Shown here: positions 26,312 to 64,000 of the stretch, one piece after another
Numbering within the stretch: the stretch's first letter is position 1
Layout of the letters: every line of letters begins with the position of its first letter
Source of the DNA: Halorarum halobium
GTDB taxonomy: Archaea; Halobacteriota; Halobacteria; Halobacteriales; Haloferacaceae
Reading direction: 5' to 3'
Length of the DNA stretch: 64,000 bases
Assembly: GCF_032116555.1 (NCBI RefSeq)
Contig: NZ_CP134949.1
Location: 682,001-746,000 of the forward strand
Position numbers and translations under genes: made by a program
Notes under the pieces: model-generated
Told to the model about the DNA's origin: nothing
Databases searched by the model: none
What the model saw: the letters and a program-made list of their open reading frames with translations, nothing else

Positions 26312-26745
26312 TGGACCGGGTTCGAGACAACCTGTTTTTCGGAGATATCTACGACGCGGCTGACCACGAGTACTATCGGGAGAACGAGATCGACGCGGTG
26401 GTGAAGCTTTGTGGCATTAACCCTGTTCCAGAGTATCCGGACCATGTCGAGGTCGTGGATATGCGGATGCCGGACAGTGAGGAGAACGAGTTGGAGGAGG
26501 TTGCCAAGGCGGTTGATCTTATCGTGAAGAAGTTGGAGCGTGGGCAGACGGTTTTCGTTCACTGTGCTGCAGGTCAGAGTCGTTCAGTCACCGTTGCGGC
26601 TGCTGTTCATGCTATCTTGGAGAAAACTGGTTTTGACCAGGGTTTGGATAGGATTCGGGAGCTCCGGGATGTGCAGCCCCACCCGAAACTGCAGGAAAAT
26701 GGCGTCAGCATTGTCCAGGTCTTCAACGGGGAAACGGATTCTTAG
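26311..26745 (+). CDS. dual-specificity protein phosphatase
   Basis: VHCAAGQSRS (HCxxGxxR) P-loop, MPD general-acid loop; start at ATG 26311. Confidence 0.9.
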   Translation: MDRVRDNLFFGDIYDAADHEYYRENEIDAVVKLCGINPVPEYPDHVEVVDMRMPDSEENELEEVAKAVDLIVKKLERGQTVFVHCAAGQSRSVTVAAAVHAILEKTGFDQGLDRIRELRDVQPHPKLQENGVSIVQVFNGETDS

Positions 26746-29292: not shown

Positions 29293-30291
29293 CTACGCCT
29301 CGATCTCGTATTCCTGCATGAGTTCTCGGACGGTTTCGCGTTCTCCTTCCCAGTACTCCTCGGCGTCAGGATCCTCGATCAGTTCGTTGGCACGGCTACG
29401 TACTGCGTTTTCTCCGAGGATGTCTGGATGGGGTATGCCTTCTCCGTATTCCAGGATTCCAGCTGCCTGCTCAAATCCTGTATCCAGCTGGTACTGCGGG
29501 ATGTCGTCTTCTGCGAGATGTGTTAGAGCGTAGGTTGCTGCGTTGTAGGTCTCGTACAGGGACGGATTCTCTGGGTCGTCGACTTCCTCCTGGACAGCAG
29601 TAATCAGGTCCGGTGTCGGGTTCTCCAGGTAACGATCTATCCCGGTGTCTTGCAGAACCAGCAGGGCTTCATCCTGGTTCATCAGGGTCCGGTCCTGTGC
29701 CTGTTCGAGCCTATTTTCGACTTCATCGATTCCCTCGATCGCAGAATCTACTGCGTGTATTGCCAGTCCTGGTTGGAACTCCTCCTCGTGAGTCTGTTCG
29801 TAGGTCTGATCAGCTACGAACGCCATCATACCGTTGCTGCAGACCTGCCGCATCGCCCCGTTCTCGTACTTGACGCCGTGGAAACCACTGTGACCGGACC
29901 GTACTCGGAGATCTGTTTCGATTACGTCGCCGGGCTGTGGCTCTACAGTCTGGTCGAGCCCAATCCGGGCGCTCATCTTGTGAACGGTCGGGGATAGGTT
30001 GACTCTGCCGCTGGGTTCGATATCTTCCTCCCTTTGTTCGATCCCGGTTCTGACGGCGTCGAGTATGTCGCCGTACTGGATTACGTTGTAGAAGTCTTCG
30101 TTGCTGGAGACGATGCCTGTTAGTCGGCCGTCGTCGGTCCAGAGACTGTCTCGGTAGGATGCTTCTTGCCATTCATCGAGGTCTTCGTGGTGTCCGAAGA
30201 CTTTCTGGCGTTCTACTTCGGGTATTTCGTCTTCTATGAGTTTTTCAAGTTCGTAGGAGTCGTCAAATCTGAGTGTGTCGCCTCTTGGAAT
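29293..30291 (-). CDS. DUF932-like protein, 332 aa (putative ATT start)
   Basis: GIVSS...YNVIQYGDIL, SGHSG...RQVCSNGM, SLYETYNAAT motifs; AGGTGA + 6 nt + ATT. Confidence 0.75.
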   Translation of the reverse strand: MPRGDTLRFDDSYELEKLIEDEIPEVERQKVFGHHEDLDEWQEASYRDSLWTDDGRLTGIVSSNEDFYNVIQYGDILDAVRTGIEQREEDIEPSGRVNLSPTVHKMSARIGLDQTVEPQPGDVIETDLRVRSGHSGFHGVKYENGAMRQVCSNGMMAFVADQTYEQTHEEEFQPGLAIHAVDSAIEGIDEVENRLEQAQDRTLMNQDEALLVLQDTGIDRYLENPTPDLITAVQEEVDDPENPSLYETYNAATYALTHLAEDDIPQYQLDTGFEQAAGILEYGEGIPHPDILGENAVRSRANELIEDPDAEEYWEGERETVRELMQEYEIEA

Positions 30292-31489: not shown

Positions 31490-31612
31490 GTGATTGAGGT
31501 TTTCCAGCAGCACCAGGCTTTCTGGCTACTGGTTTTCTTTGTCCTGTTTCTCGTCACCGCGTTCTACGTCGTACAGGGATTGAAGAAGATAGGAGCGGCT
31601 CTGTTCGGTTAA
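31490..31612 (+). CDS. 40-aa single-pass membrane protein
   Basis: MIEVFQQHQAFWLLVFFVLFLVTAFYVVQGLKK...; GGAGG upstream. Confidence 0.55.
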   Translation: MIEVFQQHQAFWLLVFFVLFLVTAFYVVQGLKKIGAALFG

Positions 31613-33656
31613 ACCGGGCTGTAGACCTGGCTCTCATTCCCGTAACGCTCCACAGTCTCTTTCTGCAGAATGTTTGTCTCCAGTAGTTGGTCGAGGACGC
31701 GCTGGGTCTTACTGGATCCAAACGGTGCGTCATCTTCCCGGTAGCATTTCGACTTGGATGGTCTCTCGTCGTTTTCCTCTATGTACCGGCGGATGAACTC
31801 CAGTAACTGCTGCTCGTCACTGGACAAATCGCTGCCCTGGTCCTCTGTTTCTGGCTCGGAGTTTTCTTCGACTGTATCGACTTCTTTGAGATCTGGTGTG
31901 GAGGCGGTAAATCGGTCCTGTAACCGGTCGATCTGGTTCTGTGTCGGCGCGGTTGGCAGGGTGAATGCTTGACGGACTTCGACGCGGAGCTTCGGATAGT
32001 CTCGGGACTGGATGATTGCCTCGCCGGTAGCCAGGTCCTGGATCTCTCTTCCGTCGTCGAGGAACTTGGAGGCGTAGTCGAAGTACTCGCCGTGAAGGAA
32101 CACGGACACCGTGTTTTCCCGGACGTGCTTGTGGTTCCGGTTGAAGTCCATCGGGCTCTGGGAGACGATGACGACGTGGACTCCGAACTTCCGGGCTTCG
32201 CGTACCAGGTCTTGGATGGCGTCGGCGGCAGCTCCTTTTGTGAAATTGTGTGCCTCTTCCAGGAAGACGAACAAGGGGGTATCTCGTCGGTCGATCTTGG
32301 CGAGCTCGGTGAACACCTTGTTGACGAACTCTTGCTTCTCATCGTCGTCCAGGTCTTTCAGCGTGGCTGCGTTCACCCCGGAGAACAATTCGTGGATGTC
32401 GTCCGGCTTGTCGAGCAGCTGGTCGCCGCCGATCCAGTACTGGTCAGCTGCAAGTCCTACGCCTTCGTCGTGATCCGGGTTCGGCAGGGAAACACCGACT
32501 TCCTCAGTGTCTGATGGCGAGATCGAGAGGACGTCGTAACCGAGTGACGCGATATTTTCCAGGAGAACCCGCTTCAGGTAGCTCTTTCCAGAACCAGTTT
32601 CTCCGGTGATGTAGTAGTGCGGCAGCTCTGCCGGATCGAATCCGACGACCTGGTTAGTCCCGGTCAGGGTGCCGATCATCGGCCCTGTGTTCGGAACCTC
32701 TTCTGCGTACGCCACGGTCTCGGCTTTCAATCCTTGAAGCACGGAGCTGACCGCGCGTGCCGGAGTCGCCTTCGACCGTTCAACCGTGGACTCCCCGACC
32801 TCGACGTCCCGCAACGCAACCGCCATGTACTGCTCGGCAGAACTCCGGCGAAGATCCTTCAACGACTCCCCGAGGTCGTCGTCGACCTGATCCAATAGTT
32901 GCTCGAAGCCATCCGGGTTCAACAAGCCGGTATGCTCTAACCGGTTGAAGACTCGTGGCTCCTCGAGTTCCTCGACGTGCAACTTGAACTTCGGACCCTG
33001 CAGGACTTGCTTCACCTTCCTCCGATGCAGGTCGAAGACTTCGTCGACGTGCCTCTCCGCTGCCTCACCGACCCGGTCTTCCGGGATGACTTCGGGATCG
33101 GTGGAGAACTGGAACAGGTAGGCCAGTGAGACACCGTTAGCCCGCCACTGCTCCACGGCCTGTTTCTTCTCCTCCAGCGTCTCCAGGATCTGCTGAAGCC
33201 GGCTCTCGGCCTGCTGAAGCTCTCCTCGGACCTCGTCCTGTTCTGCTGCATCACCGCTTCCAAACTACTTACAGAGTTCCTGACCGCGACCGAGACCGAC
33301 TCCTGCCGGTCCCGAAGCTCCTGTGCCTGTCGCTGCAGACGTCCGGCCTCTGCCAGGAGTTCAGCTACTTCGTCGTGCTCGTCGAGGACTTGGACCGAGG
33401 TCGTGTCGCAGTAGTCGACGCTGAGGGAGAAGCTGGGGAACGTGTTGGCGAGGTACTTGTTGAGTTTGCCGAGGTTGCGGTCCCACATCTCCTGGCCTTC
33501 CTCGTCCTGCTTCACCAAGCGGTACGTCTTCGATGCCCGGACCAGGAACCGGTCCTCTACCAGGTGCGTGACCTCTACCGTGGCCTGGTTGTCCGTATCC
33601 CAGAAAAACTCGGTGCAGGGTTCGACCTCTGTACTGCCGATTTTAACAAGTTCCAT
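31609..33656 (-). CDS. HerA/VirB4-like ATPase with N-terminal coiled coil and C-terminal wHTH; one frameshift at about 33263
   Basis: HYYITGETGSGKS, VFLEEAH, REARKFG, SQ. ORFs 33012-33656 and 31609-33156 join if one T is restored (AGT AGT TT[T] GGA AGC...), giving a continuous coiled coil. Confidence 0.7.
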
Positions 33657-43226: not shown

Positions 43227-44534
43227 GTGGGAGAAGACTCGAAAACAGAACTGAAACAGGAAGACTTCGGACTCTTCCAAGACAACAACGACAGCAAAAT
43301 CTTCGCAGACATCGATATCCTCGACCCTGATAGGATTCCTGGTCCCGACGAGTTCGTAGAGAGAAAAGAGGAGATGCAGACCATAGCGTCCGGCCTGCGT
43401 CACATGATTAACGGGAACTCCGGGAGGAACATGATGATAACCGGGGACACCGGGCTCGGGAAAACGATGTGTGCCCGGATAACCGTCAACGAACTCTCCC
43501 GGAATATGGACGAGCACCAGAACTTCCGGCACGAATACTTCAACGACCTCGAGTCGGAGAGAGACACGTTACAGAAGCTATCCCGTGCCTTGGAACTTGT
43601 TCCCGAGAAGAAGACGGAGCCATACCAAGGGACAAATCTCTCCTTCTACTACGACCTACTCGTTGAGAAATTGAAGCAGGAGGAGATCTACCTCGTCATT
43701 ACTTTCGACGAAGTCGACCGGTTGATGTCGAACAAGAAGGAGGGGAAGCCGGCGAGTCACGGGAACTCAATGCTAAAACAGCTGTTAGAGGTGAGGAAGA
43801 AATTGAAGAACTCCGATGCAGAGGCAGGGTTAACTCTGATCTGTATCACCAACGATTCCAGCGTTCCCGGAGATCTCTCGTCCAAAGTCAAGGACCGCTT
43901 CGGGAGAGAGGGACTTCACTTCTCAAGCTACAACGCCCTCCAGCTGAGGAACATCCTTGAGAAAAGGGCGGAGAAGGCTTTCCAGCCTGGTGTAGTTGAT
44001 AGCGGGGCAATCTTCGCCACGGCTTCCCTGGTGGCTCGTGATAGTGCTTCAGCCAGAAGAGCGATTGAACTCTTGCGGAAAGCAGGTGAACTGGCTGATG
44101 AGAACGGAGACGGTGAAATAAGGAAAGAGGATCACGTCGATCCGGCACACGAGGCCCTGGAAACGAACGAAATTCTGGAGGCGATCAAAAGTCTGCCGAA
44201 GCACAACAAGATCACTCTGTACGCCATTATAGCGAATTACTCTGGAGGCAAGCTCGCAACCGGCGATGTCTACGAGAATTACAAGGAGATCTGCAGGAAG
44301 CGGGCTGACCTTTCAGAGAGTGAGATGCTGTCTCAGAGATCGATCAGTGAACACATCAAGAAGATGGATATGCAAGGTATCATCCAGGCCAAGACGGTGT
44401 CCAAGGGAAGGTATGGCCGGACGCGTGAGATAACTATCAATTTCAGTGAGTCCACACGCCAAGATTTGATGGAGCATCTCCATGAGGAAAACCTGTACCT
44501 GGCTCCGGACTCGATGGCTGCAGAGCCCACCTGA
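43227..44534 (+). CDS. cdc6: Orc1/Cdc6 replication initiator
   Basis: GDTGLGKT Walker A, ITFDEVD Walker B, YNALQLRNILEKRA, ARRAIELLRKAGELA, C-terminal wH SKGRYGRT. Confidence 0.93.
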   Translation: MGEDSKTELKQEDFGLFQDNNDSKIFADIDILDPDRIPGPDEFVERKEEMQTIASGLRHMINGNSGRNMMITGDTGLGKTMCARITVNELSRNMDEHQNFRHEYFNDLESERDTLQKLSRALELVPEKKTEPYQGTNLSFYYDLLVEKLKQEEIYLVITFDEVDRLMSNKKEGKPASHGNSMLKQLLEVRKKLKNSDAEAGLTLICITNDSSVPGDLSSKVKDRFGREGLHFSSYNALQLRNILEKRAEKAFQPGVVDSGAIFATASLVARDSASARRAIELLRKAGELADENGDGEIRKEDHVDPAHEALETNEILEAIKSLPKHNKITLYAIIANYSGGKLATGDVYENYKEICRKRADLSESEMLSQRSISEHIKKMDMQGIIQAKTVSKGRYGRTREITINFSESTRQDLMEHLHEENLYLAPDSMAAEPT

Positions 44535-48229: not shown

Positions 48230-48342
48230 TACTGACCGCTCTGAGCGCAAATTACTTGTAGTTTGCCTACATGAGGCGGCGTTCTCTTAAAAGACCCAAA
48301 CGAACTTATCACTTCGACGCCGTTCTACGGTCAACTTCAGTA

Positions 48343-49761
48343 ATGTTTCGCAACCACGAGGGCGGGCGTGAGGCAAGCCACCATCACGGCGAACTCTACA
48401 AGGATCTTGTCCGCAGGTACTGGGAGGCCCGTGAATACAATGTTGTCGCGGACTCGAAGGACGACAGCATCACGTCCGACCTGATTATCAGGCGGGCTCA
48501 TGAACACGGGAACCAAGATCTGTGGATCGAGACGAAGGACACGAAGCTGACTCGGACCAATCCGGATTTCCTGGCCGAGTTTGCCCGGTACATGATCGAG
48601 TATCAGGAAATTTCTGCGGAACACCGGTTCGACCTGCATATTTTCGTCCGGTATCTCCGGGCTCCGGAGAAGTGGGAGCGGATTTTCAAGGTGGTCAAGC
48701 AGAAGGATGAGGCTGTAAAGGACTTCTATCAGCGGGTCCAGGATGATGCGGATCTGGACGAGGCTGAGGAAGACAAGTTCAACAGCTACCCTTACGAGGA
48801 TTTTGACCACTTCGTTACAGAGGTCACAACTGTCCATCAGATGTCGCCTGCGAAGGTCCAGCAGGCTACGGAGGAGTTGGAACGCAGTGACCGGTACGAG
48901 CACGACACCTTCACCGAGGAAAGGGAACCGATCAACAAGCGAGAGGAGCTGAGACCGAACTTCGCGGAGATAAACAGTCCGCCAGAGAACATCTATATCG
49001 GGGACGTGGACGTTCCGAACTTCTTCCAGGGAGTTACGAACCTGATTGAGGATACGGAGGCAGTCCGGTTCCGGTCGAACAAGGTATTCAGCTTGCTGCC
49101 TCCCGAGGATTTCCCGGATTACGTGGAGTCGGTCGTGGAGATGGATACGGTTTCAGCTGAGTCTTTCGAGGACTGGGCTAAGGACGAAGAGAACACAGAT
49201 CTGGCTTCGTCCTTGCTGACTCGGGAGATCTGCAGGCAGACCGTGGAGAACCACGAGTTGGACGACTGTGTGGCGTTCCGGTACCGTGGCGACTACTACC
49301 TGATGTTCGAGCACGGACCTCTAGAGAAAGAGGTCGAGAAAGTTCGGGGTCAGCAGGTTTCCCGGGTTTTCAGTGATGCCTCTTCCAGGTTTGTTCGTCA
49401 CCGGACTGCCCAGCTGAACGTCCGGCGTTTGAACGACGACTACTTCCTCTTCGTATTGATCAAGGACCACTTTACGGACAACGGAGAGCACATGACCTTG
49501 ATCAGAGGTGAGAGAAAGGGAAGTCTCCACGATAATTTCCCGCAGCACCGGTACAACAACAGTCAGACGTACAGCAGGTATAACCACTGGCGGAAGATCC
49601 TGGGAATCCACAACCGGGCGAAGGATACCAGTGGTCAGATAATCGGGTTCCGACGTATCACTGAGATCTCGATCGGGAAGCGTCCCGCCGGGACACGGGA
49701 GGCAATCGATACTCGGGACACTGATTCGGTTCAGCAGAAACTGGGTGATCACAATGACTGA
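48343..49761 (+). CDS. PD-(D/E)XK nuclease-APAZ fusion (short pAgo partner)
   Basis: N-terminal SDLII...WIETK; EELRPNFAEI..PPENIY and YNN...NHWRKIL APAZ-like segments; 8-nt overlap with pAgo. Confidence 0.7.
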   Translation: MFRNHEGGREASHHHGELYKDLVRRYWEAREYNVVADSKDDSITSDLIIRRAHEHGNQDLWIETKDTKLTRTNPDFLAEFARYMIEYQEISAEHRFDLHIFVRYLRAPEKWERIFKVVKQKDEAVKDFYQRVQDDADLDEAEEDKFNSYPYEDFDHFVTEVTTVHQMSPAKVQQATEELERSDRYEHDTFTEEREPINKREELRPNFAEINSPPENIYIGDVDVPNFFQGVTNLIEDTEAVRFRSNKVFSLLPPEDFPDYVESVVEMDTVSAESFEDWAKDEENTDLASSLLTREICRQTVENHELDDCVAFRYRGDYYLMFEHGPLEKEVEKVRGQQVSRVFSDASSRFVRHRTAQLNVRRLNDDYFLFVLIKDHFTDNGEHMTLIRGERKGSLHDNFPQHRYNNSQTYSRYNHWRKILGIHNRAKDTSGQIIGFRRITEISIGKRPAGTREAIDTRDTDSVQQKLGDHND

Positions 49762-51175
49762 TTTCGATGCACGGTGGCTGGGCGAGCCGTCTCTGAAGTT
49801 CGGAGATGGTGAAGCGAAGGATCCTCGCGCCGGCCTGCTGAAACACGGGCCGTGGTCGCCTGGGGAAGGCAACAACCACAACGATATCTATGTCGGGTTC
49901 ATCGGGACCAGTCACTCCATCAGCGCGGTCAAGCGGTTGTTCACTGAGATGGAGACGGTGATCCCCCGGGAGGAGGAAGAACCTCAAAGGCACAAGCCTC
50001 CGTTCCCGGCCCTGGGCACCGACTCTGCCTTCCGTGCCAGCTTCACGATGCTGGACAGGTGGACGTGGGAGATGCCGCCGAGCGACGTCAAACTCGTTAC
50101 TGACGAGCCCACGACTGACCAGAGCGTAGAGACTCTGCTTGACTTAATGGAGATCTATATCAAGGATCTTTCCGGGGATGACCCGCCTCCGAACGTACTT
50201 GTTATTTCGCTGCCGGAGGAGATCGAGGAAGCCTGTACTCACCCGGACAAGAGCAAGGAGAAGATGAAAGCGGGGGACACTGACTTCCACGACCGGATTA
50301 AGACGTTCGGCCTCGAGTATGACGTCCCCACCCAGCTGATTCGACCGAGTTCTCTCCGGTTCGATGACGATGAGGGACAGGAGAAGGCCGAGGTTGCCTG
50401 GAATCTCGCCGTGGCGATGCTCTACAAGTCACGTGAGGGCCATCCCTGGAAGCTGGGGCACCTGGAGAACGACACCTGCTACGCCGGGATCTCATTCTAC
50501 CGTGTGCGGCACGGCGATAAGAGCCAGACACGGGCTTCACTCGCCCAGGTTTTCCTGGGCACCGGGGAGAGCTTCGTGCTTCGCGGCGGCCAAGCAATTA
50601 GAGACGAGTCAACAGGAAACAACCACTTGACCGAGGACAGTGCGGAGGAGATTGTCGGGCAGATCCTTGACCAGTACAAGAGGAAGCGTCGAGGAGCCGA
50701 GCCCAGCAGGTTCGTGCTTCACAAGACTTCCCGGTTCAAGCCCGGTGAACGAGAAGGGTTCAAACGAGGGGCTGGAGACATCGACAAACTGGACTTCGTC
50801 ACGGTGCGCGACGGCGACCCAGTCAGGCTGTACAGTTCAGGGAATTACCCGCCGCTTCGTGGGACAGTAGTCACTCCGAAAGGCGAGGACAAACACTACC
50901 TCTACACACAGGGCTACACTCCGGCCATTCAGACGTATCCAGGTCCTCGCATCCCGGCCCCGATCACCGTTGAGCCAGATCCGGAGGAATGCCACAGCTC
51001 GTACGACGAGATATGTGAGGAGATTCTCTCGTTCACGAAGCTGGACTGGAACACGTCCGACTTTTCGAAAAAGAAGCCGGTCACGATCCGTGTGGCGCAG
51101 GCTGTCGGCGCGATCCTTGCAGAGGCCGACAAACGGGGAATCACGGTCAAACCGCAGTACTACTATTATATGTAA
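49754..51175 (+). CDS. short prokaryotic Argonaute (MID-PIWI, catalytically inactive)
   Basis: EPSLKFG, FHDRIK...PTQLI, WNLAVAMLYK...PWKL, CYAGISFY, VLHK, PLRGT, TYPG, TKLDWN...PVT; no N/PAZ domains, no DEDX tetrad. Confidence 0.92.
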   Translation: MTDFDARWLGEPSLKFGDGEAKDPRAGLLKHGPWSPGEGNNHNDIYVGFIGTSHSISAVKRLFTEMETVIPREEEEPQRHKPPFPALGTDSAFRASFTMLDRWTWEMPPSDVKLVTDEPTTDQSVETLLDLMEIYIKDLSGDDPPPNVLVISLPEEIEEACTHPDKSKEKMKAGDTDFHDRIKTFGLEYDVPTQLIRPSSLRFDDDEGQEKAEVAWNLAVAMLYKSREGHPWKLGHLENDTCYAGISFYRVRHGDKSQTRASLAQVFLGTGESFVLRGGQAIRDESTGNNHLTEDSAEEIVGQILDQYKRKRRGAEPSRFVLHKTSRFKPGEREGFKRGAGDIDKLDFVTVRDGDPVRLYSSGNYPPLRGTVVTPKGEDKHYLYTQGYTPAIQTYPGPRIPAPITVEPDPEECHSSYDEICEEILSFTKLDWNTSDFSKKKPVTIRVAQAVGAILAEADKRGITVKPQYYYYM

Positions 51176-55103: not shown

Positions 55104-58100
55104 CTATCTGTACTGGTTGATGAGTTCGCGGATGTCGTCGGAGTCTACGTAGAGACCTTGCAGACGGGTGGTTCTGTCTGCTTCTTTCAGCAGCATGTCG
55201 CCGTCGCCACCGAGTTCCTCGGCTCCGCCCTCGTCGATCAGGATCCGTGAGTCGGACTGCTTCGGGAGGCGGAAGGCTACCCGGGTGTCCAGGTTGGCAC
55301 GGAGATCCGTGTCGATGGCCTCGTGCGAAGGCCGCTGGGTCGAGATAACGAGGTGGACGCCTTGCGCCCGTGCGATCTGGGCGATACGCCGCACGTTGTC
55401 CTCGGTGTCGTCAGCGTCTTCTCCCAGCTGCTGGAGCAGGTCGCTGTATTCGTCGATGATGACGACGATTGGCTTCATCTGGTCGTCCGGGTTCTGCTCG
55501 TTGTACTCTCCGATGTCCCGGCAGACGCTTTCCCGCAGCAATTGTTTTCTACGCGGGATTTCTTCGTCGACCAGCCACTCGAACAGGTCGGCTGCGTCCT
55601 CCGAGTCGGTGATCACCTCACCATTGGCAAGGTTCGGCAGGGCGTCGAAGAAGATGAAGTCGGTCTCCTTCGGATCGACCAGGGCGAACTCGACGTTGTC
55701 CTCGCCTTTCTGCTCGATGAAGTTGAAGATCAGCGAGTACAGGAAGACGGTTTTCCCGCCGCCAGTGGCACCTCCGACCAGCATGTGAGGGGCTTCGGAA
55801 AGATCGGACCGGTAAACCTCCCCGTCGGGTGTGACTCCTGCGAGGTAGGGCAGTGAGGCAGTGTCGATCTCGTTGGAAGGCAGGTACTGGTCTCTGTAGT
55901 CGCGGAGGGGTACGGCGACGTTGTTCTCACGTGGGACGTCCAGGGCTACGTACTCTGTGCCTGGTAGTCGCTGGACGATGGGTTCTTTCTCGAACGCCAT
56001 TTCCCGGGCGATGTCCTCTGTTCGTTGTTCCAGAGGACTCTGTTTTTCGCCAGCTGCTAACCGGATTTTGAACCGGACGACGTTTGGTCCGACCTCGATG
56101 TCATCTGGGTCGATATCCCGGATGTTGATTTTGAAGTCGTTGAGCACCCGTTTCAGGGTCTCGACTAGCTCTGAGTACTCTTCTGGGTCGCCGAACCGCT
56201 TAGTGGGCTTCGCTTCGACTTCCGTTTCTTCCTCGTCTTCTTCGTCTGTCTCCTCGTCTTCTCCAACTTCGTCTTCGGATTCGTCGGGTTCAGTTTCTTC
56301 CTCTATTTCTTCTTCGACGTCTTCTTCGACGTCTGGCTCTTCCGTGTCCTGGTCTTGTTGCTTCTCCTCCCGGTCTTCGATTCCGCTGACGATGAGGCGT
56401 TTGATGGACTGCCGTGGAAGCCTGTCGAGTCGGATGGACTGTGCGTTCGGCGTGACTCCGTCGATGCGTTCGTCCGATGTCCCTTCATCGGTGACTTCAA
56501 CGGAGATGATTCGGGGATTGATCTCGATCTGAGCGTCTCCCTTGAACACGTCGTTGATGCGGTCAGCCCATTCCTGCTTGCCCTCCATCGCTTCAGCGGA
56601 CGTGAGTTCGTAGTACAGCTGTTCCCGGAGTGCTTCTTTCCGGGGCGAAGTAGTGATGTTGCTGTCGCCGGTGAACAAGCCGCGGATGGTGTCCGTCGTT
56701 TCGAATACCTGGTCGACGGCACTTCCCTTGATTACCGGTGTGTCCTCGTCTCGTGAGATTGTGTACGCGCTGCTGGTCTCCTCGAGTGTTTTTATCTCGA
56801 TTATATCGAGGATGAGGCCGCCATCGTCATCGAATTGGACGGTAAGGATGTCTGCCCGGCTCTCGCTGTCGCCCAGGTTCAACCATTCTCTGGTCCGCGG
56901 GTTGTCGATGGAGAAGATTAGCTTGGGATCTGCCAGTGTCTGTTGCAACCACTGGACTGCGATGATCGAGCCAAGCAGCCCTTTCGTGTTACGGGATTTT
57001 CCGCTGCCGAGGGTTTCCCGCGTGATGAGCCGGAGAAGTCCGCTTTGCTGCAGATCTGCGATTCTTTCAGCGATTTCTTCGAGGTCGGTGTCGTCGGGAG
57101 CGAGCCGGTATTCGTTGATGATGCGGCGGAGTACCCGTCGGAAGTAGTCGATGTCTTCCGAGTACGTGGCGAAGTCACGGTCACCGCGTCGTTCCCTGGA
57201 GATCAGGTTTTCCTTCCAGAACGGGTTGCCGTTCATCGGCGGGGAGGAGATCGATACCCAGATCCCGGAGTCGAGAAGTTTGTCGATGGTCTCCTTGTCG
57301 ACGTTCAGTTCGTTGATCTCAGCGTTGTGGATAGCTTGACGCTGATTGTATAGTTGGTTGATCAGGTCCTGGTACTCTGAGAAGAGCACGCCTTCCTTCG
57401 ACGGCGAGATGTTGATCTTGTCTTCGAGGAGGTCGTAGTCGAACTCCTTCGGGACGTACAGTGGATGGATGTTGGTGTCGGCGTCTCGTTCGAAGGTTTG
57501 GATGCTGAAGTTGCTCTGGTCGTTGAGCAGGATGAAGTGCTTGGGGTCGCCGGTCAGGTCCTCGGCGTACGAGTCGTAGCTGGTGTGTTCGGTCGTGACG
57601 ATTTCGAAGTTCCCGGAGTCGTTGTCCGGGCCGAACAGGTTGATGATGTCCTCTGAGGTTTGGGGTGAGACAGTTCCGTTGAGGACTGGCTTCTCCTCGT
57701 CCTCGATGAACACGAACTCGACAGTGGCACCTTGGATCTTCTCTTTGTCGGCCAGGTCAACGATGTCTTCCAGCAGGTCGATCGGGTCAAGCGGGTCGAT
57801 AACGCTGATCCGCAGCTGGCGTTGGGATGGCGGGTATGCCGATACGAACTTGTTCAGGACGTAGTCGTAGAACTTGGAGTTCGTGCCTTCTGCAGCGTTG
57901 TCTATACGGGTGTAGACTGGCAGCCGGTCGAGTTCGGCGGACTGTACGAGGTAGGTTTCTTCGCCAAGTCGGTAGTTTCCGCCGACGTGGATGCTACGGA
58001 GTACGTGGGGTTGTTCCTCGACGCTGTCGATCAGGAAGTTCCGTTCCTCTTCTGTGAGCGACTCGTGTTCGTCGTTCACTCCCCGTGCCAGTTCGGAGTA

Positions 58101-59711
58101 TTTCCAGAGGTGAAGGGGGTGGAGCGGTGACAGGACGAGTTCACGGTCGTCTTCGTATTCGAAGATGATCGTGTCGAAGAGGAGGAAGTCGGAGAGGAGT
58201 TTCGAGGATCCTTCGGAGCTTACGTTCTGGATTTCACGGTACTGCTTGTCCAGTTTGTCCTGGACTTCTCGGTATGCCTCGATGTACTCTTCTGCAGACT
58301 CAAGCAGGTCTTCGTCACCGAGTAGCCGGATCAGCGGTGCTGACAGGAGGCCGGGTAGTGCGTCGACGAGTTCGGTCCGTGCTTCTACGTACCGGTTGAT
58401 TGAGTCGACGAGGTCCTCGAATTTCCCGGTGTTTTCAGCTACCTTTCGGAGTTTTTCGAAGGCGCTGTCCTCTTCACGCGGGTTGAACTGTTCTGTTTCG
58501 AGGGCTTGGAAGTTCTTGATGGCGTCTTGCTTGTCTTCGGGGTTGTGGATGATTCCGCCGAAGGATTCCTCTGTGACGAAGTGGTCGACGAAGTAGTACA
58601 GGTCGTCGTTGACGTCGAAGGCGAGCTGTTCGTCGCCTGTGAACTCGATGTCGATCCTGTTCTCTTCGTCTTCTATGGCTTCCCGGTATTTCTCGTCGAA
58701 CTCGCTGGAAACTCGTTCCAGTTCTTCGTCCTCTCCGTCGAACACGGCTTCGACTCCGGCGGATTCACTGTCTCGACGGGTGCTGGTTGTGGATCGGCGG
58801 GAAGAGGAGGAGCCGGATGTAGAGAAGATCTCGTCGACCTCGTTGTAGGTGAGGTCGGCCAGGATATCGGAGTCTCCAGTCCGTTCGAATCTTCGGAGTT
58901 TGGCGACGGCTTCTTCTCGTTCTTCCCTGTTTGCGTCGTCGACCTTGGTGACGCTGTTTGTCAGGCGTCGTCGGTCCGTGTTCGACATGTGGGAGACCCG
59001 GAGTACGAGGTCGAGGTTGTCGGAGAGCCGGTCAGGGATTTGGTCTGGGTTGTTCAGCCCGGGGTCGTTGAAGAGTCGAAGCCGATGGAGTTCGGTTCCA
59101 AGGGCGTCGAGGGATGCCTGTTCGTTGTCCTGTAGGGTGGCGTTTGCGTAGTCTGCTATGGCAGGGATTTCGAACCTGTCGTAGAGGCTGGATCCGAGGG
59201 TTTCCCAGATTGCTTGGGCTGGGGGACTGTCGGTGAACTGGTCGTGTGCCTGCATCCGGTCAGTGATTTCCCGGGTGATCTCTGCCAGCGGCAGATCAAC
59301 CATGCCCTCGAAGTCTTTCATCGAGTTCAGCCGGGCGTGGTCGCCACGGACCAGGATTACCAGCTTCTCGGGTTCTATCCTCCCGTCCCAATCGAAATCG
59401 GTCTGCGTGCCGTTACGCCAGTTGACAGCGACACTGACCTTGTCGGTTATTCGGACTGAGGAACCGTCGGCTTGGGACTGAAGGGAGTTAACATCGGCTT
59501 CATCAATGCTCACCATTGCCAGGCCGACATCGTACCTGGTGCTACTGCAGAGTGTTTCGACGAATGCCTCGGCGTCGAACCGGGGCGGAGACTCGATGAT
59601 GACACCGATGTTCTCCTCGGTCAATTGGTCGACCGTCTCGCTGCCGATCGCTTCTCCGATTAGCTCCTCGTTGGTTTGATACGAGCCGTTCTGGGATTGG
59701 GATTCACTCAT
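55104..59711 (-). CDS. DndH/SspH-like large protein: PD-(D/E)XK-like domain + C-terminal FtsK/SpoIIIE translocase
   Basis: 1535 aa; PLHPL, RADIL...IIEIK, acidic linker, FtsK core (VGPNV, APHMLVGGATGGGKT, LVDPK, IIDEYSDL, STQRP, GAEELGGDGDML). Confidence 0.75.
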   Translation of the reverse strand: MSESQSQNGSYQTNEELIGEAIGSETVDQLTEENIGVIIESPPRFDAEAFVETLCSSTRYDVGLAMVSIDEADVNSLQSQADGSSVRITDKVSVAVNWRNGTQTDFDWDGRIEPEKLVILVRGDHARLNSMKDFEGMVDLPLAEITREITDRMQAHDQFTDSPPAQAIWETLGSSLYDRFEIPAIADYANATLQDNEQASLDALGTELHRLRLFNDPGLNNPDQIPDRLSDNLDLVLRVSHMSNTDRRRLTNSVTKVDDANREEREEAVAKLRRFERTGDSDILADLTYNEVDEIFSTSGSSSSRRSTTSTRRDSESAGVEAVFDGEDEELERVSSEFDEKYREAIEDEENRIDIEFTGDEQLAFDVNDDLYYFVDHFVTEESFGGIIHNPEDKQDAIKNFQALETEQFNPREEDSAFEKLRKVAENTGKFEDLVDSINRYVEARTELVDALPGLLSAPLIRLLGDEDLLESAEEYIEAYREVQDKLDKQYREIQNVSSEGSSKLLSDFLLFDTIIFEYEDDRELVLSPLHPLHLWKYSELARGVNDEHESLTEEERNFLIDSVEEQPHVLRSIHVGGNYRLGEETYLVQSAELDRLPVYTRIDNAAEGTNSKFYDYVLNKFVSAYPPSQRQLRISVIDPLDPIDLLEDIVDLADKEKIQGATVEFVFIEDEEKPVLNGTVSPQTSEDIINLFGPDNDSGNFEIVTTEHTSYDSYAEDLTGDPKHFILLNDQSNFSIQTFERDADTNIHPLYVPKEFDYDLLEDKINISPSKEGVLFSEYQDLINQLYNQRQAIHNAEINELNVDKETIDKLLDSGIWVSISSPPMNGNPFWKENLISRERRGDRDFATYSEDIDYFRRVLRRIINEYRLAPDDTDLEEIAERIADLQQSGLLRLITRETLGSGKSRNTKGLLGSIIAVQWLQQTLADPKLIFSIDNPRTREWLNLGDSESRADILTVQFDDDGGLILDIIEIKTLEETSSAYTISRDEDTPVIKGSAVDQVFETTDTIRGLFTGDSNITTSPRKEALREQLYYELTSAEAMEGKQEWADRINDVFKGDAQIEINPRIISVEVTDEGTSDERIDGVTPNAQSIRLDRLPRQSIKRLIVSGIEDREEKQQDQDTEEPDVEEDVEEEIEEETEPDESEDEVGEDEETDEEDEEETEVEAKPTKRFGDPEEYSELVETLKRVLNDFKINIRDIDPDDIEVGPNVVRFKIRLAAGEKQSPLEQRTEDIAREMAFEKEPIVQRLPGTEYVALDVPRENNVAVPLRDYRDQYLPSNEIDTASLPYLAGVTPDGEVYRSDLSEAPHMLVGGATGGGKTVFLYSLIFNFIEQKGEDNVEFALVDPKETDFIFFDALPNLANGEVITDSEDAADLFEWLVDEEIPRRKQLLRESVCRDIGEYNEQNPDDQMKPIVVIIDEYSDLLQQLGEDADDTEDNVRRIAQIARAQGVHLVISTQRPSHEAIDTDLRANLDTRVAFRLPKQSDSRILIDEGGAEELGGDGDMLLKEADRTTRLQGLYVDSDDIRELINQYR

Positions 59712-61210
59712 TGTTCCACCTCGGGGACAGAGACAATCGTGACGCCGTCCGCGTATTCCTCAGCGTATCCGAGGCTGGACACGGCTTCTTTGAAGCCCTC
59801 GTAGTTTTGGTTGTTCAGGGGGTCGCTTTCTGAAGCACTGGCACCGAGCCTGATGTCCCATTCGGCCAGGTGGCTTCGGTCTTCTTCGGTGCCGCCAACG
59901 ATGATTCCGTACCGCTGACGGAGTTCCTCGGACAGTTCCTGGAGAGACATCCGTTTTCCAGGTTCAATGACCGAGAGGATGATAGGTTCAAGCATCTCGG
60001 GATCGGGCTGATAGCGGCGCTTGTTTGCCCGGTTTCCACGTGGCTTGAGAAGCCCTGCACGCCAGGCGTACGCTTGCGCAGTGGCCTGCGGGGTGTAGGT
60101 GTCGAACCGGTTCGAGAAGTCGTGGATAACGTTACTGACCGCGTCCACTAACCTGTTGAACGTGGTGTCCTCCTCGGGGTCGCGGGATGCCCGGAATACC
60201 TGCTCAAACTTTTCGTAGTCCTCGTCGATTTTATCATCCTTCTTCCGGTTGAGATCCAGGAAGTTTTGGTTCTCGATTTCGCGCAGGACGTCGTCTTCGC
60301 TGTAGTCTTTGTAGCCGTCTCGGTCGAGGACCTTTTTGACGCCGAGCCGGGTAGCTAACTGGACTTCTGACCCGACGACGCGGAAGGATTCGAGGCTGGC
60401 GTCGGCAACCGGGTTGTTCCTGTTTCCGGTGTAGTTGAAGACGAGTGGGACAGGCTCATCTTTGCCTTCGTCTTCCCGGATCTCGTTGTGCCGGTTGGCC
60501 ATGTAGACGTACATCAGGAATCCGCCGAACTTGACGACTCGGCGGAGATCTCGGGCATAGTTCAGGTCGTAGTCGCCGTTGGAATCCTTGAGGTGTTTCG
60601 ACAGGGTTTCGAATCCGTCTACGAACTCTTCCGCGATTTGGCCGTCGTCGAATGCGTCACCGAGGACAGGTTCATCCCAAGGTGAGACGGTGACGGTGTC
60701 CGTCTCTCCGTCCTTTGCGAGGGGGCGGAAGAGTAGGGAGATGGCGTCGTGGTGATCGCGGAGCTGGTCCGTGAGTTTCTGCTCGATGTCGCTGTTAGAC
60801 TCCTGCATCACCGTGTAGATGAATCGAGATGGAGAGACACCGATGGTCCTGTATGCGATGAACCAGTCGCTCATCGAGGTCATGGCGGACCAATGCGGTG
60901 TGCTGGTGTACAGGGCGTTGTCGTTGTCCAGGACCTTCCGCATCCGGCGACGGAGATTGTCCAGTTGCTCGTCGCTCAGGTCACGCGATGATTCGAACAG
61001 GTCGTGGTATTTCTCGTCGAGTTCGCTGGAAGGAGAGCTTCCAGGTTTGTCGACGAACGTGATGAGGTCTTCCGACTGGTGGGTTGATCCTAAGACGTTG
61101 CTGAAGATTACCTGGGCCAGGTGAACCGGCTTTGTGGAGGTGGATGTGGCTTTGAAGCCGAAGGCGGCTATCGATGCGTCACCGTTCACGTCGTTGAGTC
61201 TCATTGGCAT
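59708..61210 (-). CDS. DndG/SspG-like protein
   Basis: About 500 aa, middle gene position, C-terminal ELRQRYGIIVG...LGYAEEYADG..V motif. Confidence 0.55.
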   Translation of the reverse strand: MPMRLNDVNGDASIAAFGFKATSTSTKPVHLAQVIFSNVLGSTHQSEDLITFVDKPGSSPSSELDEKYHDLFESSRDLSDEQLDNLRRRMRKVLDNDNALYTSTPHWSAMTSMSDWFIAYRTIGVSPSRFIYTVMQESNSDIEQKLTDQLRDHHDAISLLFRPLAKDGETDTVTVSPWDEPVLGDAFDDGQIAEEFVDGFETLSKHLKDSNGDYDLNYARDLRRVVKFGGFLMYVYMANRHNEIREDEGKDEPVPLVFNYTGNRNNPVADASLESFRVVGSEVQLATRLGVKKVLDRDGYKDYSEDDVLREIENQNFLDLNRKKDDKIDEDYEKFEQVFRASRDPEEDTTFNRLVDAVSNVIHDFSNRFDTYTPQATAQAYAWRAGLLKPRGNRANKRRYQPDPEMLEPIILSVIEPGKRMSLQELSEELRQRYGIIVGGTEEDRSHLAEWDIRLGASASESDPLNNQNYEGFKEAVSSLGYAEEYADGVTIVSVPEVEQ

Positions 61211-61216
61211 CGGTGG

Positions 61217-62770
61217 TCACCTCCGCTCCATCTGGTACCGGTCATCGTTGACTGTCAAGATCTCGAGGTCGCCGGTTTCAGCATCCATGATGTGAACGGT
61301 GCCGTAGTCCTCGTCGTGGCTTTCTCTGTACTCGATTTCCTCCATGAACTCCAGGAGTTGCTGTTCTTCCTCCCTGCCACGGAGGACGTAGGGAATGTTT
61401 CCTTCGAGTGCGCCCAGTGTTTCGGAGAGATCTGGGTCGATCCGGAGTCTGACCGTGGAGTTCCGGCCTTCGTATTCCAGGACGTGGTGGTCGTGGTTGT
61501 AGTCCATCGCTTCCCTGATTTCAGGGTGTAGCTCCGGGACCCGCCGGTTGAGTTCCCGTTTGGGGATCTCGGTGCGGGAGATGAGTGAGAGGGAGCTCTT
61601 CGACCGGTAGTTGTGGGAGAGCCAGACGCGGAGATCTGAGCCTTTCGAGGAGTCTGGCATGAAGTAGCCGTTGATCATCTCTATGACGTCCTCTTTCACG
61701 CTTTCATCTGGGCGTTCCCGGTTGCGTTGCTCGTGGAAGGAGTAGTTGGTTTCGTGGTAGAGATCGCGTGCGTCGAACTTCTCGATATGGGTGTCTTCGA
61801 AGTAGAACTGGCGTTTCTTCTGGATGAAGTGCTGGTCGACTTCATCTGCGGCGTCGTCGGTGTCTCCTTGTGGGATCTCTTCTTCTGCGTCGGCCCACAG
61901 CTTGCTGTCGATGAATGGGTGAGTTAGGTCGCGGGGATGGAAGTTCTCGTTGAGTAGTGTGAAGATTTTCCCGCTGCCGCTGAACGCCAGGTTGTAGTAC
62001 TTCAGTTCTTCGTTGAAGTCGGTGACGCTCCGGTCTTTTGCGCCTGTGATGCAGTACGCGAGGAAGTTGAGTAGGTCTCGGACGGTTACGTGGGCATCGA
62101 GCTTGCCGACGGACTGTAGGAGACGGACGATGTTGTCCCTGACCCGGTCGTTTCGGATCTTGTCCATGTTGTAGGAGATGTGTCCGTCAATGTCGTCGCC
62201 GTTGGGCTCTTTCAGGAACTTGGATGAGGTCAGGTTCTCGATAGCCTGGACGATGACTTTCCGGGTGAGGATGTTCCGGTTGTTGAGGTCAATGACGGTG
62301 ATGGAGTCAAAGTCTGCTTCGTCTGCTTGGCTATCGTCGTAGATAATCTGGTTCTGGAACTGGTCCCTGACTTCTTCGAGGAAGTCGTACTGGTCCGAGT
62401 GCCGGGTCGTCATCTCGTACAAGGGACCGTCGTTGATAGCGAGCACTCCGGGCCGGCCCGCGTCAAGCGCGTCTTGCCACTTGTCGAGAAGGATGGTGTA
62501 GTCGTCGTATTCAGAGGCGTCGGAGAGGTAGAAGTAGTCTGGTTCGGGATAGTCCGGTTCCATCTGAAGGATGTACTGGGTTTTCCCGTCCCCTGGGTTT
62601 CCGGTGAGTACGACCTGCTTGCCGTCGTCCAGGGCGTCTTCCAGGTATCCGTCGAGGCGTGTGGTGATGTGTATCTCGCGGCGTTGTTCTTCAGTCAGCT
62701 TCTCTGCGAATCCTCCCTGAGCGAGTTGGGAGAGGAATCGCAGATCAAGTGTCGATGCTTCGATACCCAT
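61217..62770 (-). CDS. DndF/SspF-like P-loop ATPase
   Basis: VVLTGNPGDGKT, SDAS, LAINDGPL, IDLNNR, TVRDLLNF motifs. Confidence 0.65.
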   Translation of the reverse strand: MGIEASTLDLRFLSQLAQGGFAEKLTEEQRREIHITTRLDGYLEDALDDGKQVVLTGNPGDGKTQYILQMEPDYPEPDYFYLSDASEYDDYTILLDKWQDALDAGRPGVLAINDGPLYEMTTRHSDQYDFLEEVRDQFQNQIIYDDSQADEADFDSITVIDLNNRNILTRKVIVQAIENLTSSKFLKEPNGDDIDGHISYNMDKIRNDRVRDNIVRLLQSVGKLDAHVTVRDLLNFLAYCITGAKDRSVTDFNEELKYYNLAFSGSGKIFTLLNENFHPRDLTHPFIDSKLWADAEEEIPQGDTDDAADEVDQHFIQKKRQFYFEDTHIEKFDARDLYHETNYSFHEQRNRERPDESVKEDVIEMINGYFMPDSSKGSDLRVWLSHNYRSKSSLSLISRTEIPKRELNRRVPELHPEIREAMDYNHDHHVLEYEGRNSTVRLRIDPDLSETLGALEGNIPYVLRGREEEQQLLEFMEEIEYRESHDEDYGTVHIMDAETGDLEILTVNDDRYQMERR

Positions 62771-62808
62771 ATTTATCTTGGATGTGGTGACCGAGTATTT
62801 CCGACCTG

Positions 62809-64000
62809 TTAACTGTTGCTTATAATGAACTCCCCAAGGCTGGTCTGACGCTTGTCGAAGTCGATTTCACTGCTTAACTTGAAGTCCTGTTTGTCAAATT
62901 CATGGATGTTTTCGAGGATGTCTGTTTTCTGGGCTCGCATACTGGCCCACCGGTCGATCCAGTGCTGGTAGATTGATTGCTGCTCCTGTTCCGGATCTTC
63001 GAACGGCCAGTAGTACTCGGGGTCGTCGTCTATTCCCAATAGGTAGTCCTGGGCGTTTTCGGCGAGATCGATGCCGTAGACGATACGCCGTGATTCGTGC
63101 TTGAGCAGGTCGGTTTCCAGTCCGCAGTTCTTCAATCCTCGCCGGATCTTGCGGATGCGGGGGGAGACGCCTTCTCCAAATCTACCTCGGACGACTTTCC
63201 GACCTTCCTCAAATTGGGTGACTTGACTTAGTCGCTTCCTGGTCTTCGGCCCAAATTGGATTGAGCCGTATCCCTCAGTGTATCCGATCTGGTCGTACTC
63301 GATCCGGCCTCTCTCGGTCGGGACTCTCACCCGGTCATACTGGGCGCTTCCAATCTCGAATAGTCCGGTTGTGTCGAGGAAGACCAGCTCATTCGGCTTC
63401 GTCAACGCTTCTCCTTTCATCGAGCTGGCGATCTCGCTCTGGTTATCGCCGTATTTGTCCTGGTACATGTTGATGACCTTTGGACCGGTCAAGGCCATCG
63501 CCACGAGTTTGCCACCCAGGATACGATTGTAGGGCGGGATAGCACCGCAGACCATGATGTTCATCATACCGGCCCCGACGCGCTCCTTCTTGAGCTCTTT
63601 CAGAGCGGTTTTGATAGCCCGGCGTCCGGACTCGTTGTTCAATCCGGTGTGGATGAACTCCTCGTCGTCCTGGTCGCTGTGTTCTTGGAAGTACTTCCTG
63701 TCTCGCAGGAGTTTCTGAAGTGCGCGTGCCCGCTTCTTCCTGAACAGGGCTGTCTCGCTGCGGTCCTCCCAGGAGTCCATCTTCTCCGGGTTTTCGTCTT
63801 CCCCGTCTTCGATGGTCTGCTCGGCTTGCTGCTCGATTTCTTCCAGGATTTCGATAACCTGTTCATCAGGGTTAACGAAGCTTTCGTCGGACAGTTCCGG
63901 ATGCTCCTCGACGAAGTCGTCGTACCGGATGTTGGCGATCGCGTTCCTGATGGAGTCCACTAGAGCTTCACGTATATCGGAGCAGAACTGGCTGACCCGT
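62809..64000 (-). CDS. DUF4338 / DruA-like protein, 5'-truncated by window
   Basis: MMNIMVCGAIPPYNRILGGKLVAM, DTTGLF...SAQYDR, IGYTEGYG; frame open to the window edge. Confidence 0.8.
   Translation of the reverse strand, partial: RVSQFCSDIREALVDSIRNAIANIRYDDFVEEHPELSDESFVNPDEQVIEILEEIEQQAEQTIEDGEDENPEKMDSWEDRSETALFRKKRARALQKLLRDRKYFQEHSDQDDEEFIHTGLNNESGRRAIKTALKELKKERVGAGMMNIMVCGAIPPYNRILGGKLVAMALTGPKVINMYQDKYGDNQSEIASSMKGEALTKPNELVFLDTTGLFEIGSAQYDRVRVPTERGRIEYDQIGYTEGYGSIQFGPKTRKRLSQVTQFEEGRKVVRGRFGEGVSPRIRKIRRGLKNCGLETDLLKHESRRIVYGIDLAENAQDYLLGIDDDPEYYWPFEDPEQEQQSIYQHWIDRWASMRAQKTDILENIHEFDKQDFKLSSEIDFDKRQTSLGEFIISNS

Follow-up and report, generated by a model that had tools for sequence, protein, structure and literature searches.

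A DUF4338-Linked Cassette of DndFGH Type in Halorarum halobium: A Probable Restriction System without Phosphorothioate Modification

Introduction

In the usual account, effectors of the DndFGH type form the restriction half of phosphorothioate (PT) systems. What role can such an effector have when it stands apart from PT genes and is headed by a gene of the DUF4338/DruA family? The question is raised by a stretch of 64,000 nucleotides (nt) from Halorarum halobium (NCBI RefSeq assembly GCF_032116555.1, contig NZ_CP134949.1, positions 682,001 to 746,000), hereafter called the window, in which four co-oriented genes, A, B, C, and D, extend on the minus strand from position 55104 to past 64000. 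A preliminary description, made from the sequence alone, had proposed that they form an undescribed defence system, in which a DUF4338-like gene heads a DndFGH/SspFGH-like module with an FtsK motor. The spacing that it gave, with 38 nt between A and B, 6 nt between B and C, and an overlap of 4 nt between C and D, is confirmed by the listing of open reading frames (ORFs), the first gene being cut by the window end, and the composition is borne out by Pfam and PADLOC matches for all four proteins.

The locus is probably a self-contained, mobile four-gene restriction system of the DndFGH/SspFGH type, a 'HerA/FtsK capture' system that works without PT modification. The claim of novelty does not stand, because stand-alone DndFGH and the fusion of DUF4338 with DndF both appear in those parts of the study by Rakesh, Aravind, and Krishnan (NAR 2024, PMC10853773) that are drawn on here. 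In them, DndFGH is described as commonly decoupled from DndABCDE and as a stand-alone system in many archaea, DndF is reported sometimes to carry an N-terminal GNAT domain 'annotated as DUF4338', and the motors of DndH are assigned to six HerA/FtsK clades, of which 'clade 2' has FtsK-alpha. Among the papers found in a literature search, this study is the one that connects DUF4338 with Dnd proteins.

Results

Genes B, C, and D Resemble the Subunits of an FGH-Type Effector

Gene B encodes a P-loop protein which matches the PADLOC model of SspF (E-value 4.5e-15, covering amino acids (aa) 131-248 only) and that of DndF (2e-6). Its Walker A motif, GNPGDGKT, occupies aa 57-64, and in alignments with 29 to 36 relatives D84 is conserved, while Asn113 takes the place of the usual aspartate at the Walker B position; 36 sequences agree without exception at G57, G60, D61, G62, K63, A111, and N113. 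DndF is described as a derived P-loop kinase with canonical Walker A and with Asn replacing Asp in Walker B (PMC10853773), and this is the combination that B displays. Gene C lies where a DndG/SspG gene is expected, directly after the F-like gene, and its length of 500 aa falls in the range of ~450-500 aa for such proteins. It matches SspG (8.4e-16) with aa 215-493 aligned to positions 251-494 of the 498 in the profile, and it also has a match to NCBIfam MAD7 (5.9e-8), which at 32 bits is far from the cut-off of 410 bits. When B and C were compared with PDB sequences, singly or as deeper profiles, there was no significant match.

The best characterized part of D is its motor. The PADLOC model of SspH is matched by the C-terminal aa 1190-1532 only (2.2e-66), and Pfam identifies FtsK_SpoIIIE (1.3e-31) and FtsK_alpha (1.4e-11). 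The motor is very close to the solved cellular FtsK (PDB 2ius, 1.7e-51, and 2iuu, 3.1e-49) and also matches mad8 (5.4e-23), and its Walker A (GxxGxGKT) and Walker B (DEY) motifs are almost invariant in an alignment of 20 sequences. D has, in other words, the C-terminal ATPase of the HerA/FtsK class that is a hallmark of DndH and SspH.

The N-terminal 1160 residues of D were analysed by the 20-sequence alignment and by an AlphaFold2 (AF2) model of residues 1-1160, with a mean pLDDT (the predicted value of the local distance difference test) of 75.5. Two further hallmarks of DndH/SspH emerge from this. Ahead of the motor, at the level of motifs, there is a restriction endonuclease (REase) domain, whose D954 and E972-x-K974 do not vary among 20 sequences, the most distant of which has 31% identity, so that the predicted nuclease carries an intact PD-(D/E)xK signature. 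Ahead of the nuclease lies a region with a methyltransferase-like fold, which fills the VIA list for the D model. The methyltransferase motifs as commonly defined, i.e., a glycine-rich S-adenosylmethionine (SAM) loop and a motif of the (D/N)PP(Y/F) type, are both missing from the conserved sequence of this region, and because of this the domain is probably inactive, as a DndH/SspH-type methyltransferase domain is expected to be and as the methyltransferase domain of DndH is described (PMC10853773). The N-terminal features expected of DndH/SspH are an inactive SWI2/SNF2 domain, a helix-turn-helix (HTH), two beta-sandwiches, and target recognition domains; when the D model was compared with the PDB by Foldseek, nothing was found at E<=1e-3, and a row for a DEAD-box domain 2 had a probability of 0.28. 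For the N-terminal 1160 aa there are 71 relatives; their length is ~1500 aa, except in one of 1140 aa. That one (P0191, 30% identity over 95% coverage) has no FtsK domain; its motor may have been split off or lost.

Gene A Is a Long Form of DUF4338/DruA

The start codon of A lies outside the window, at window position 64923, and the complete gene, found in the genome, runs from 62809 to 64923 (809-2923 on the minus strand of the overlapping stretch L002) and encodes 704 aa. Since A is truncated by the window end, only residues 309-704 are contained in the window. The protein matches the PADLOC model DruA (PDLC00001, the long model; 5.4e-147) over nearly its full length and Pfam DruA/PF14236 (4.3e-36) in two pieces, with profile positions 38-128 on aa 169-268 and positions 120-296 on aa 442-629. 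The Pfam domain is thus interrupted by an insert of ~170 residues, and from this follows that A has an N-terminal extension, this insert, and a C-terminal tail. In an alignment of 29 sequences with a mean identity of 31%, 41 columns are invariant; Arg, Trp, Tyr, and His are frequent among them, and C459, Y465, and K472 belong to the invariant residues.

The GNAT assignment of A is a prediction that comes from PMC10853773. In our searches A had no Pfam GNAT family at E<=5 and, singly or as a deeper profile, no significant match among PDB sequences; a search of the ESM Atlas with residues 440-704 gave no usable match; and a complex prediction for these residues together with B, where the fold of the partner is itself uncertain, gave no answer (score 0.00). 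No A-like gene was found by tblastn in 50,697 phage records, and a Phold preprint, in the part drawn on here, gives DruA-like folds in six Synechococcus phages.

The Four Genes Recur Together and Appear to Move as a Unit

The four genes are found together in other genomes. In a sample of 401 genomes of the phylum, A has a match of any kind in seven, including the present genome, and a full-length match in three. In both of the other full-length cases, which belong to different families of the order, B, C, and D follow directly after A, with 83-87% identity. A scan of genome contigs returned A-B-C-D in the same order in eight loci out of eight, from Natronomonas, Halohasta, Natrinema, Halobaculum, Halosimplex, an unclassified halobacterial isolate, an uncultured Natronomonas metagenome-assembled genome (MAG), and a nanohaloarchaeal MAG. 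The nanohaloarchaeal locus is the most distant, with identities of 53% for A, 41% for B, 38% for C, and 40% for D. Two of the eight loci are from genomes already in the sample of 401, and the cassette is accordingly seen as a unit in 10 distinct haloarchaeal or nanohaloarchaeal genomes. Because the order recurs in all eight contig loci and in both of the full-length matches in the phylum sample, it is not a chance juxtaposition.

The borders of the unit are visible at the DNA level. When this genome was compared by blastn with five near-identical genome loci, with a haloarchaeal plasmid (L029), and with a metagenome contig (L072), positions 55097-64984 in window numbering aligned and nothing outside them, so that ~60 nt upstream of the start of A are conserved as well. 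Homology that stops at the cassette borders points to the four genes moving together, as a horizontally mobile unit of ~9.9 kb. Conservation of the neighbourhood of DUF4338 and FGH, which the preliminary description had set as a check, is therefore strong, and as described below it often takes the form of a fusion.

A and B Are Often Fused, and the Motor of D Is Exchanged

Elsewhere, what are here two genes, A and B, is often a single one. An exhaustive HMMER search with B of 1.84 billion representatives gave 311 matches at E<=1e-3. Among the best 150 of these 311, 59 have a length of at least 600 aa, and 58 of the 59 match the full-length A profile at their N-terminus; most of these long relatives, with 1180-1300 aa, correspond to A plus B. 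An alignment of 30 such A-B fusions was then used as query in a scan of metagenomes, and the 75 loci returned were surveyed by ORFs and hidden Markov models. The two genes are fused in 34 of them and split in 12; two have B only, on cut contigs, and 27 have A only. In this sense DUF4338 constantly accompanies B, and most relatives have the two joined covalently.

The rest of the cassette follows in the same order. A C-like ORF is present after B in 35 of the 39 loci where at least 600 nt are left (it is absent in L060, L094, L098, and L123), and an ORF like the N-terminus of D in 30 of the 31 B-bearing loci with at least 2500 nt left (absent in L060). To the fused forms also belongs one on a Hymenobacter plasmid (L027:13427-22033), where it is followed by a 464-aa G-like gene, an IS3 insertion, and a 993-aa gene with an FtsK domain.

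The motor of D is less constant than its N-terminus. Among 23 loci with at least 6.5 kb after B, which is room for a complete D, the haloarchaeal FtsK profile was matched in 14. A Pfam scan of 12 D-like proteins, 10 without and two with a match to this profile, found HerA/DUF87 in five, RuvB-like AAA+ in two, TrwB/AAA_22-type domains in two, FtsK in two, and none in one. That the N-terminus is kept while the motor varies fits the 'capture' idea put forward in PMC10853773.

Search for Phosphorothioate Genes

The preliminary description had stated that dnd, ssp, pbe, and druE genes are lacking nearby, and this holds over a larger region: no dnd, ssp, pbe, or dru gene was found in 15 kb upstream of A or in 7 kb downstream of D, and the genome as a whole is without dndC and DruE. 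The marker dndC (TIGR03183) was found neither in this genome, which is 99.9% complete, nor in five other cassette-bearing genomes, i.e., in none of six hosts. As a positive control, the same model has hits at E ~1e-170 in three of 201 genomes of the order, so that the absence of dndC is meaningful. The present genome has one weak PAPS_reduct ORF, at a distance of ~1.06 Mb. A search of the genome for SspB/DUF4007 gave nothing, with controls that were silent too.

Druantia Modules and Other Partners of DUF4338

DruA is the DUF4338 protein of type I Druantia, where it is accompanied by DruB, DruC, DruD, and DruE. The present locus has the first of these and not the others: no canonical DruB, DruC, or DruD and no large ORF occurs within 15 kb upstream of A, which is the region searched for them, and tblastn of the genome with haloarchaeal DruE1 gave only a helicase segment of 28% identity, 2 Mb away.

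The situation is different in several other haloarchaea, where a divergently oriented module of genes for 413 aa, 608 aa, and 1807 aa, the last a full-length DruE1 (PADLOC PDLC00013, E=0), abuts A (L017, L018, L020, L021, L029, and L072). The 413-aa and 608-aa genes that accompany DruE have no tblastn match in the H. halobium genome. With a further locus, L019, where a DruE-like fragment comes after D, there are seven haloarchaeal loci that have a DruE module beside the cassette. No second druA was seen in the DruE-bearing stretches, and because of this one DruA may serve both the Druantia-I-like and the FGH-like module there. True Druantia I loci, with a short DruA together with DruD and DruE, occur in the same phylum (L013 and L014).

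DUF4338 is also found elsewhere, directly after a HerA- or MzaB-like ATPase of ~590-600 aa, in the short form in two archaeal contigs and in the long form in plasmids of Roseivivax and Leisingera. DUF4338 thus pairs with several kinds of motor.

Genomic Surroundings

At a distance of 4 kb from the cassette there is a pair of genes for an REase partner of 496 aa and a short prokaryotic Argonaute (pAgo) of 476 aa, of which the former overlaps the start of the latter; Pfam gave nothing in either protein. Beyond the window end, upstream of A, follow a DUF4238 protein and a HEPN protein, which are further defence-type genes. Among many ORFs without family, the window has an Orc1/Cdc6 protein, a DUF932 protein, and a pair of HerA/VirB4-like ATPases, which suggest that DNA resembling a plasmid or provirus is integrated here. 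Neither the window nor L002 yielded a tRNA gene. Taken together, the cassette looks like part of a defence island on integrated plasmid-like DNA of a haloarchaeal chromosome. The coordinates are collected in Table 1.

Table 1. Coordinates of the cassette, its predicted domains, neighbouring genes, and related loci. Positions without prefix refer to the window and those with an L prefix to the locus named.
Feature	Position	Strand	Description or match
Gene A	62809..64000 (ORF listing 62809..63960/open end)	-	Long-form DUF4338/DruA-like; residues 309-704 of 704
Gene B	61217..62770	-	DndF/SspF-like P-loop protein, 517 aa
Gene C	59708..61210	-	DndG/SspG-like, 500 aa
Gene D	55104..59711	-	DndH/SspH-like large subunit, 1535 aa
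D residues about 604-854	57150..57902	-	Rossmann methyltransferase-like fold, predicted inactive
D residues about 930-1100	56412..56924	-	PD-(D/E)xK restriction-endonuclease-like domain (predicted)
D residues 1170-1535	55104..56204	-	FtsK alpha domain and FtsK/SpoIIIE motor
Aga_REase_Archaea and short pAgo pair	48271-51175	+	PADLOC 6.7e-80 (496 aa) and pAgo_I 3.3e-145 (476 aa)
HerA/VirB4-like ATPase	26742-28142	-
HerA/VirB4-like ATPase	31609-33156	-
DUF932 protein	29293-29976	-
Orc1/Cdc6 protein	43227-44534	+
DUF4238 protein	L002:14461-15360	+	~12-16 kb past window end; Pfam 2.6e-45, PADLOC DUF4238-Pers 1.6e-10
Hypoth_Ymh/HEPN protein	L002:16848-17735	+	~12-16 kb past window end; 5e-22
DruE1 module	L029:3046-11535	-	Haloarchaeal plasmid
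DruE-like fragment	L019:12064-13479		After D
DUF4338 with HerA/MzaB-like ATPase	L015:10046-14153	-
DUF4338 with HerA/MzaB-like ATPase	L016:6049-10174	+
DUF4338 with HerA/MzaB-like ATPase	L028:3428-7182	+
DUF4338 with HerA/MzaB-like ATPase	L052:7043-10785	+
D-like subunit, N-terminus kept, varied motor	L077:6340-11016		Pfam scan
D-like subunit, N-terminus kept, varied motor (and others)	L092:5120-9835		Pfam scan

Discussion

How could such a system work? To visualize this, consider the published model of DndFGH transferred to the present proteins. C, together with the non-catalytic DNA-reading domains of D, would pick the target DNA. The FtsK motor would then translocate along this DNA or capture it, and the REase domain of D would nick or cut it. 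B would act as a nucleotide-binding switch or sensor, and A would dock on B, as a catalytic accessory with either a licensing role for the complex or the role of a co-effector.

Several observations weigh against reading the locus as an FGH-type restriction system with A as its accessory. The matches of B and C to the Ssp models are weak and partial, and in NCBIfam no Dnd-associated model is matched by either protein, and no family at all by B, at E<=0.01. In the N-terminal 1190 residues of D no SspH or DndH model is matched, the two beta-sandwich domains and the target recognition domains (TRDs) of canonical DndH were not identified in it, and its 1535 aa are fewer than the DndH mean of 1700 aa, so that D is 'DndH-like' by architecture only. 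The AF2 model of A has a pLDDT of 54.5, and of less than 50 in the DUF4338 core, which leaves the GNAT fold unconfirmed; when DUF4338 profiles from 77 and 67 sequences were compared by hhalign with one built on 22 GNAT domains of this genome, the probabilities were 0.2% and 0.1%, in a weak test (low Neff, without secondary structure) which does not count as evidence against a GNAT fold. Furthermore, B is truly absent in 11 of the 27 A-only metagenome loci, namely those with enough sequence after A, and DruE is present in five of the 27, which means that DUF4338 is not exclusive to FGH; in the seven haloarchaeal loci with a DruE module beside the cassette, A might work for the DruE module, either in place of FGH or in addition to it. 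Finally, a literature search brought up no experimental work on the function of DruA or on an FGH system bearing DUF4338.

Among the other explanations, the one that deserves most attention, although it is unlikely, is that DUF4338 is a self-marking enzyme, which puts a mark that is neither phosphorothioate nor methyl on host DNA or nucleotides, and that FGH cuts unmarked DNA. Type II Druantia has a methylase in place of the DruA of type I, and Mom of phage Mu is a GNAT-like DNA modifier. A mark of this kind would explain why A is a constant rather than an occasional partner in this clade, why it is the best conserved protein in the most distant comparison (53% versus 38-41%), and why its invariant columns look like those of an enzyme. 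It would also meet the demand that, with no methyltransferase motifs of its own in D and with PT genes absent in six of six hosts, self must be spared in some other way, and DNA marking driven by GNAT and TGT proteins has been proposed in another HerA/FtsK system (PMC12839542, where the part drawn on here does not mention DUF4338). Evidence of DNA modification of any kind is, however, lacking, and the GNAT fold is not confirmed. The fused domain is interpreted in PMC10853773 as a back-up effector that targets proteins, a regulator or an effector would be fused to a sensor ATPase just as well as a modifier, and the phage records, with no A-like gene among them, give no sign that viruses hijack a protective mark. 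A more general form of the idea, to which we assign a slightly smaller, still low likelihood, is that DUF4338/DruA is an exchangeable enzymatic 'front end', which uses neither methylation nor phosphorothioation but some other chemistry to mark or license self and into which varied motor-nuclease back ends plug: FGH, DruE, which shares a single druA with it in the seven haloarchaeal loci, and the HerA/MzaB-type ATPases of archaeal contigs and roseobacter plasmids. Were this true, the cassette would be a new restriction-modification type, and the role of DruA could be tested in a context of four genes.

It is very unlikely that A belongs to Druantia type I, that FGH is an independent neighbour, and that A is here an orphan left behind when a DruE module was lost. 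The abutting DruE1 modules, the fragment in L019, the A-only metagenome loci that have DruE, and the true Druantia I loci of the phylum are what one would expect from such a history, but the fusion of A and B in 58 of 59 long B relatives and in 34 of 75 metagenome loci is not, nor is the finding of DruE in just one of 48 B-bearing metagenome loci. In addition, A lies 38 nt from B and shares its strand, the DruE module is oriented divergently to A, and the homology with loci that have DruE stops ~60 nt upstream of A, which argues that A travels with B, C, and D and not with DruE. Somewhat less probable still is a function outside defence, where the FtsK pump serves segregation or transfer of the integrated plasmid-like element. 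This would account for the closeness of the motor to cellular FtsK, for the public annotation of D as 'DNA translocase FtsK', and for an Orc1/Cdc6 gene and two HerA/VirB4-like ATPases in the window, which are typical of archaeal plasmids. Against this, the pump is fused to a methyltransferase-like reader domain and to a nuclease motif that is invariant, B, C, and D have matches to models of defence proteins, the cassette lies directly beside defence genes, and relatives of D that exchange the motor for HerA-, TrwB/AAA_22-, or RuvB-type domains while they keep the N-terminus fit better with a captured effector motor. The smallest likelihood, close to negligible, belongs to a classical PT-dependent FGH module with its modification genes elsewhere or too divergent to be detected. 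Canonical DndFGH and SspFGH do depend on PT (PMC8092258 and PMC11662687, in the parts drawn on here), and the SspB/DUF4007 search is uninformative, its controls being silent, but dndC is missing from all six hosts in a search whose positive control worked, no more than one weak PAPS_reduct ORF was found in the genome, and the cassette moves alone.

If the locus is, as we believe probable, a stand-alone FGH-type restriction system, then here is an FGH-type effector that travels alone between haloarchaea and nanohaloarchaea. It offers a compact and genetically tractable setting in which to study how stand-alone FGH spares its host and what DruA does in Druantia. It also has a practical side: public records label the genes of the cassette 'DruA', 'hypothetical', and 'DNA translocase FtsK', so that what automated tools give for it may be an incomplete Druantia system or nothing at all.

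Comparison with Known Systems

The systems with which the cassette shares least are MADS and Druantia. Like MAD7-MAD8 of MADS, it has an ATPase-nuclease pair with a HerA/FtsK ATPase, together with weak matches to MAD7 in C and to mad8 in the motor, but the scores are far below the family cut-off, and there is no methyltransferase and no other mad gene. Like Druantia type I (DruABCDE), it begins with a gene of the DruA/DUF4338 family, and in several haloarchaea it has a DruE1 module beside it; unlike in Druantia, A has 704 aa, compared with 380-455 aa in the true Druantia loci of the phylum, and is linked or fused to a DndF-like protein. With the SspABCD-SspFGH and DndABCDE-DndFGH systems it has in common a nuclease and translocase effector for which the best PADLOC matches of B, C, and D are SspF, SspG, and SspH. 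It differs from them in that the matches are weak and partial, in the extra DUF4338 gene, and in the absence of PT synthesis genes from the locus, the genome, and five other hosts.

The closest likeness is to stand-alone DndFGH as it is described in the parts of PMC10853773 drawn on here: the order F-G-H, Walker A combined with Asn in Walker B, a motor with FtsK-alpha, decoupling from PT, an archaeal host, and DUF4338 attached to DndF are found in both. There are also differences, in that DUF4338 is here not fused but encoded by a separate upstream gene of 704 aa, with an N-terminal domain and an insert of ~170 aa, that D, with ~1535 aa versus a mean of 1700, has 1190 N-terminal residues outside all SspH and DndH models, and that DUF4338, which in PMC10853773 is one of six occasional N-terminal additions, is near-constant in this clade. 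The cassette is therefore most aptly placed in the family of stand-alone DndFGH systems with DUF4338-linked DndF that has already been described, as a haloarchaeal member with the two genes split. To the description of that family are added here the strength of the tie between DUF4338 and DndF, transfer as a unit, the lack of PT genes in six host genomes, the swaps of motor, and, in other haloarchaea, the apparent sharing of druA with Druantia I.

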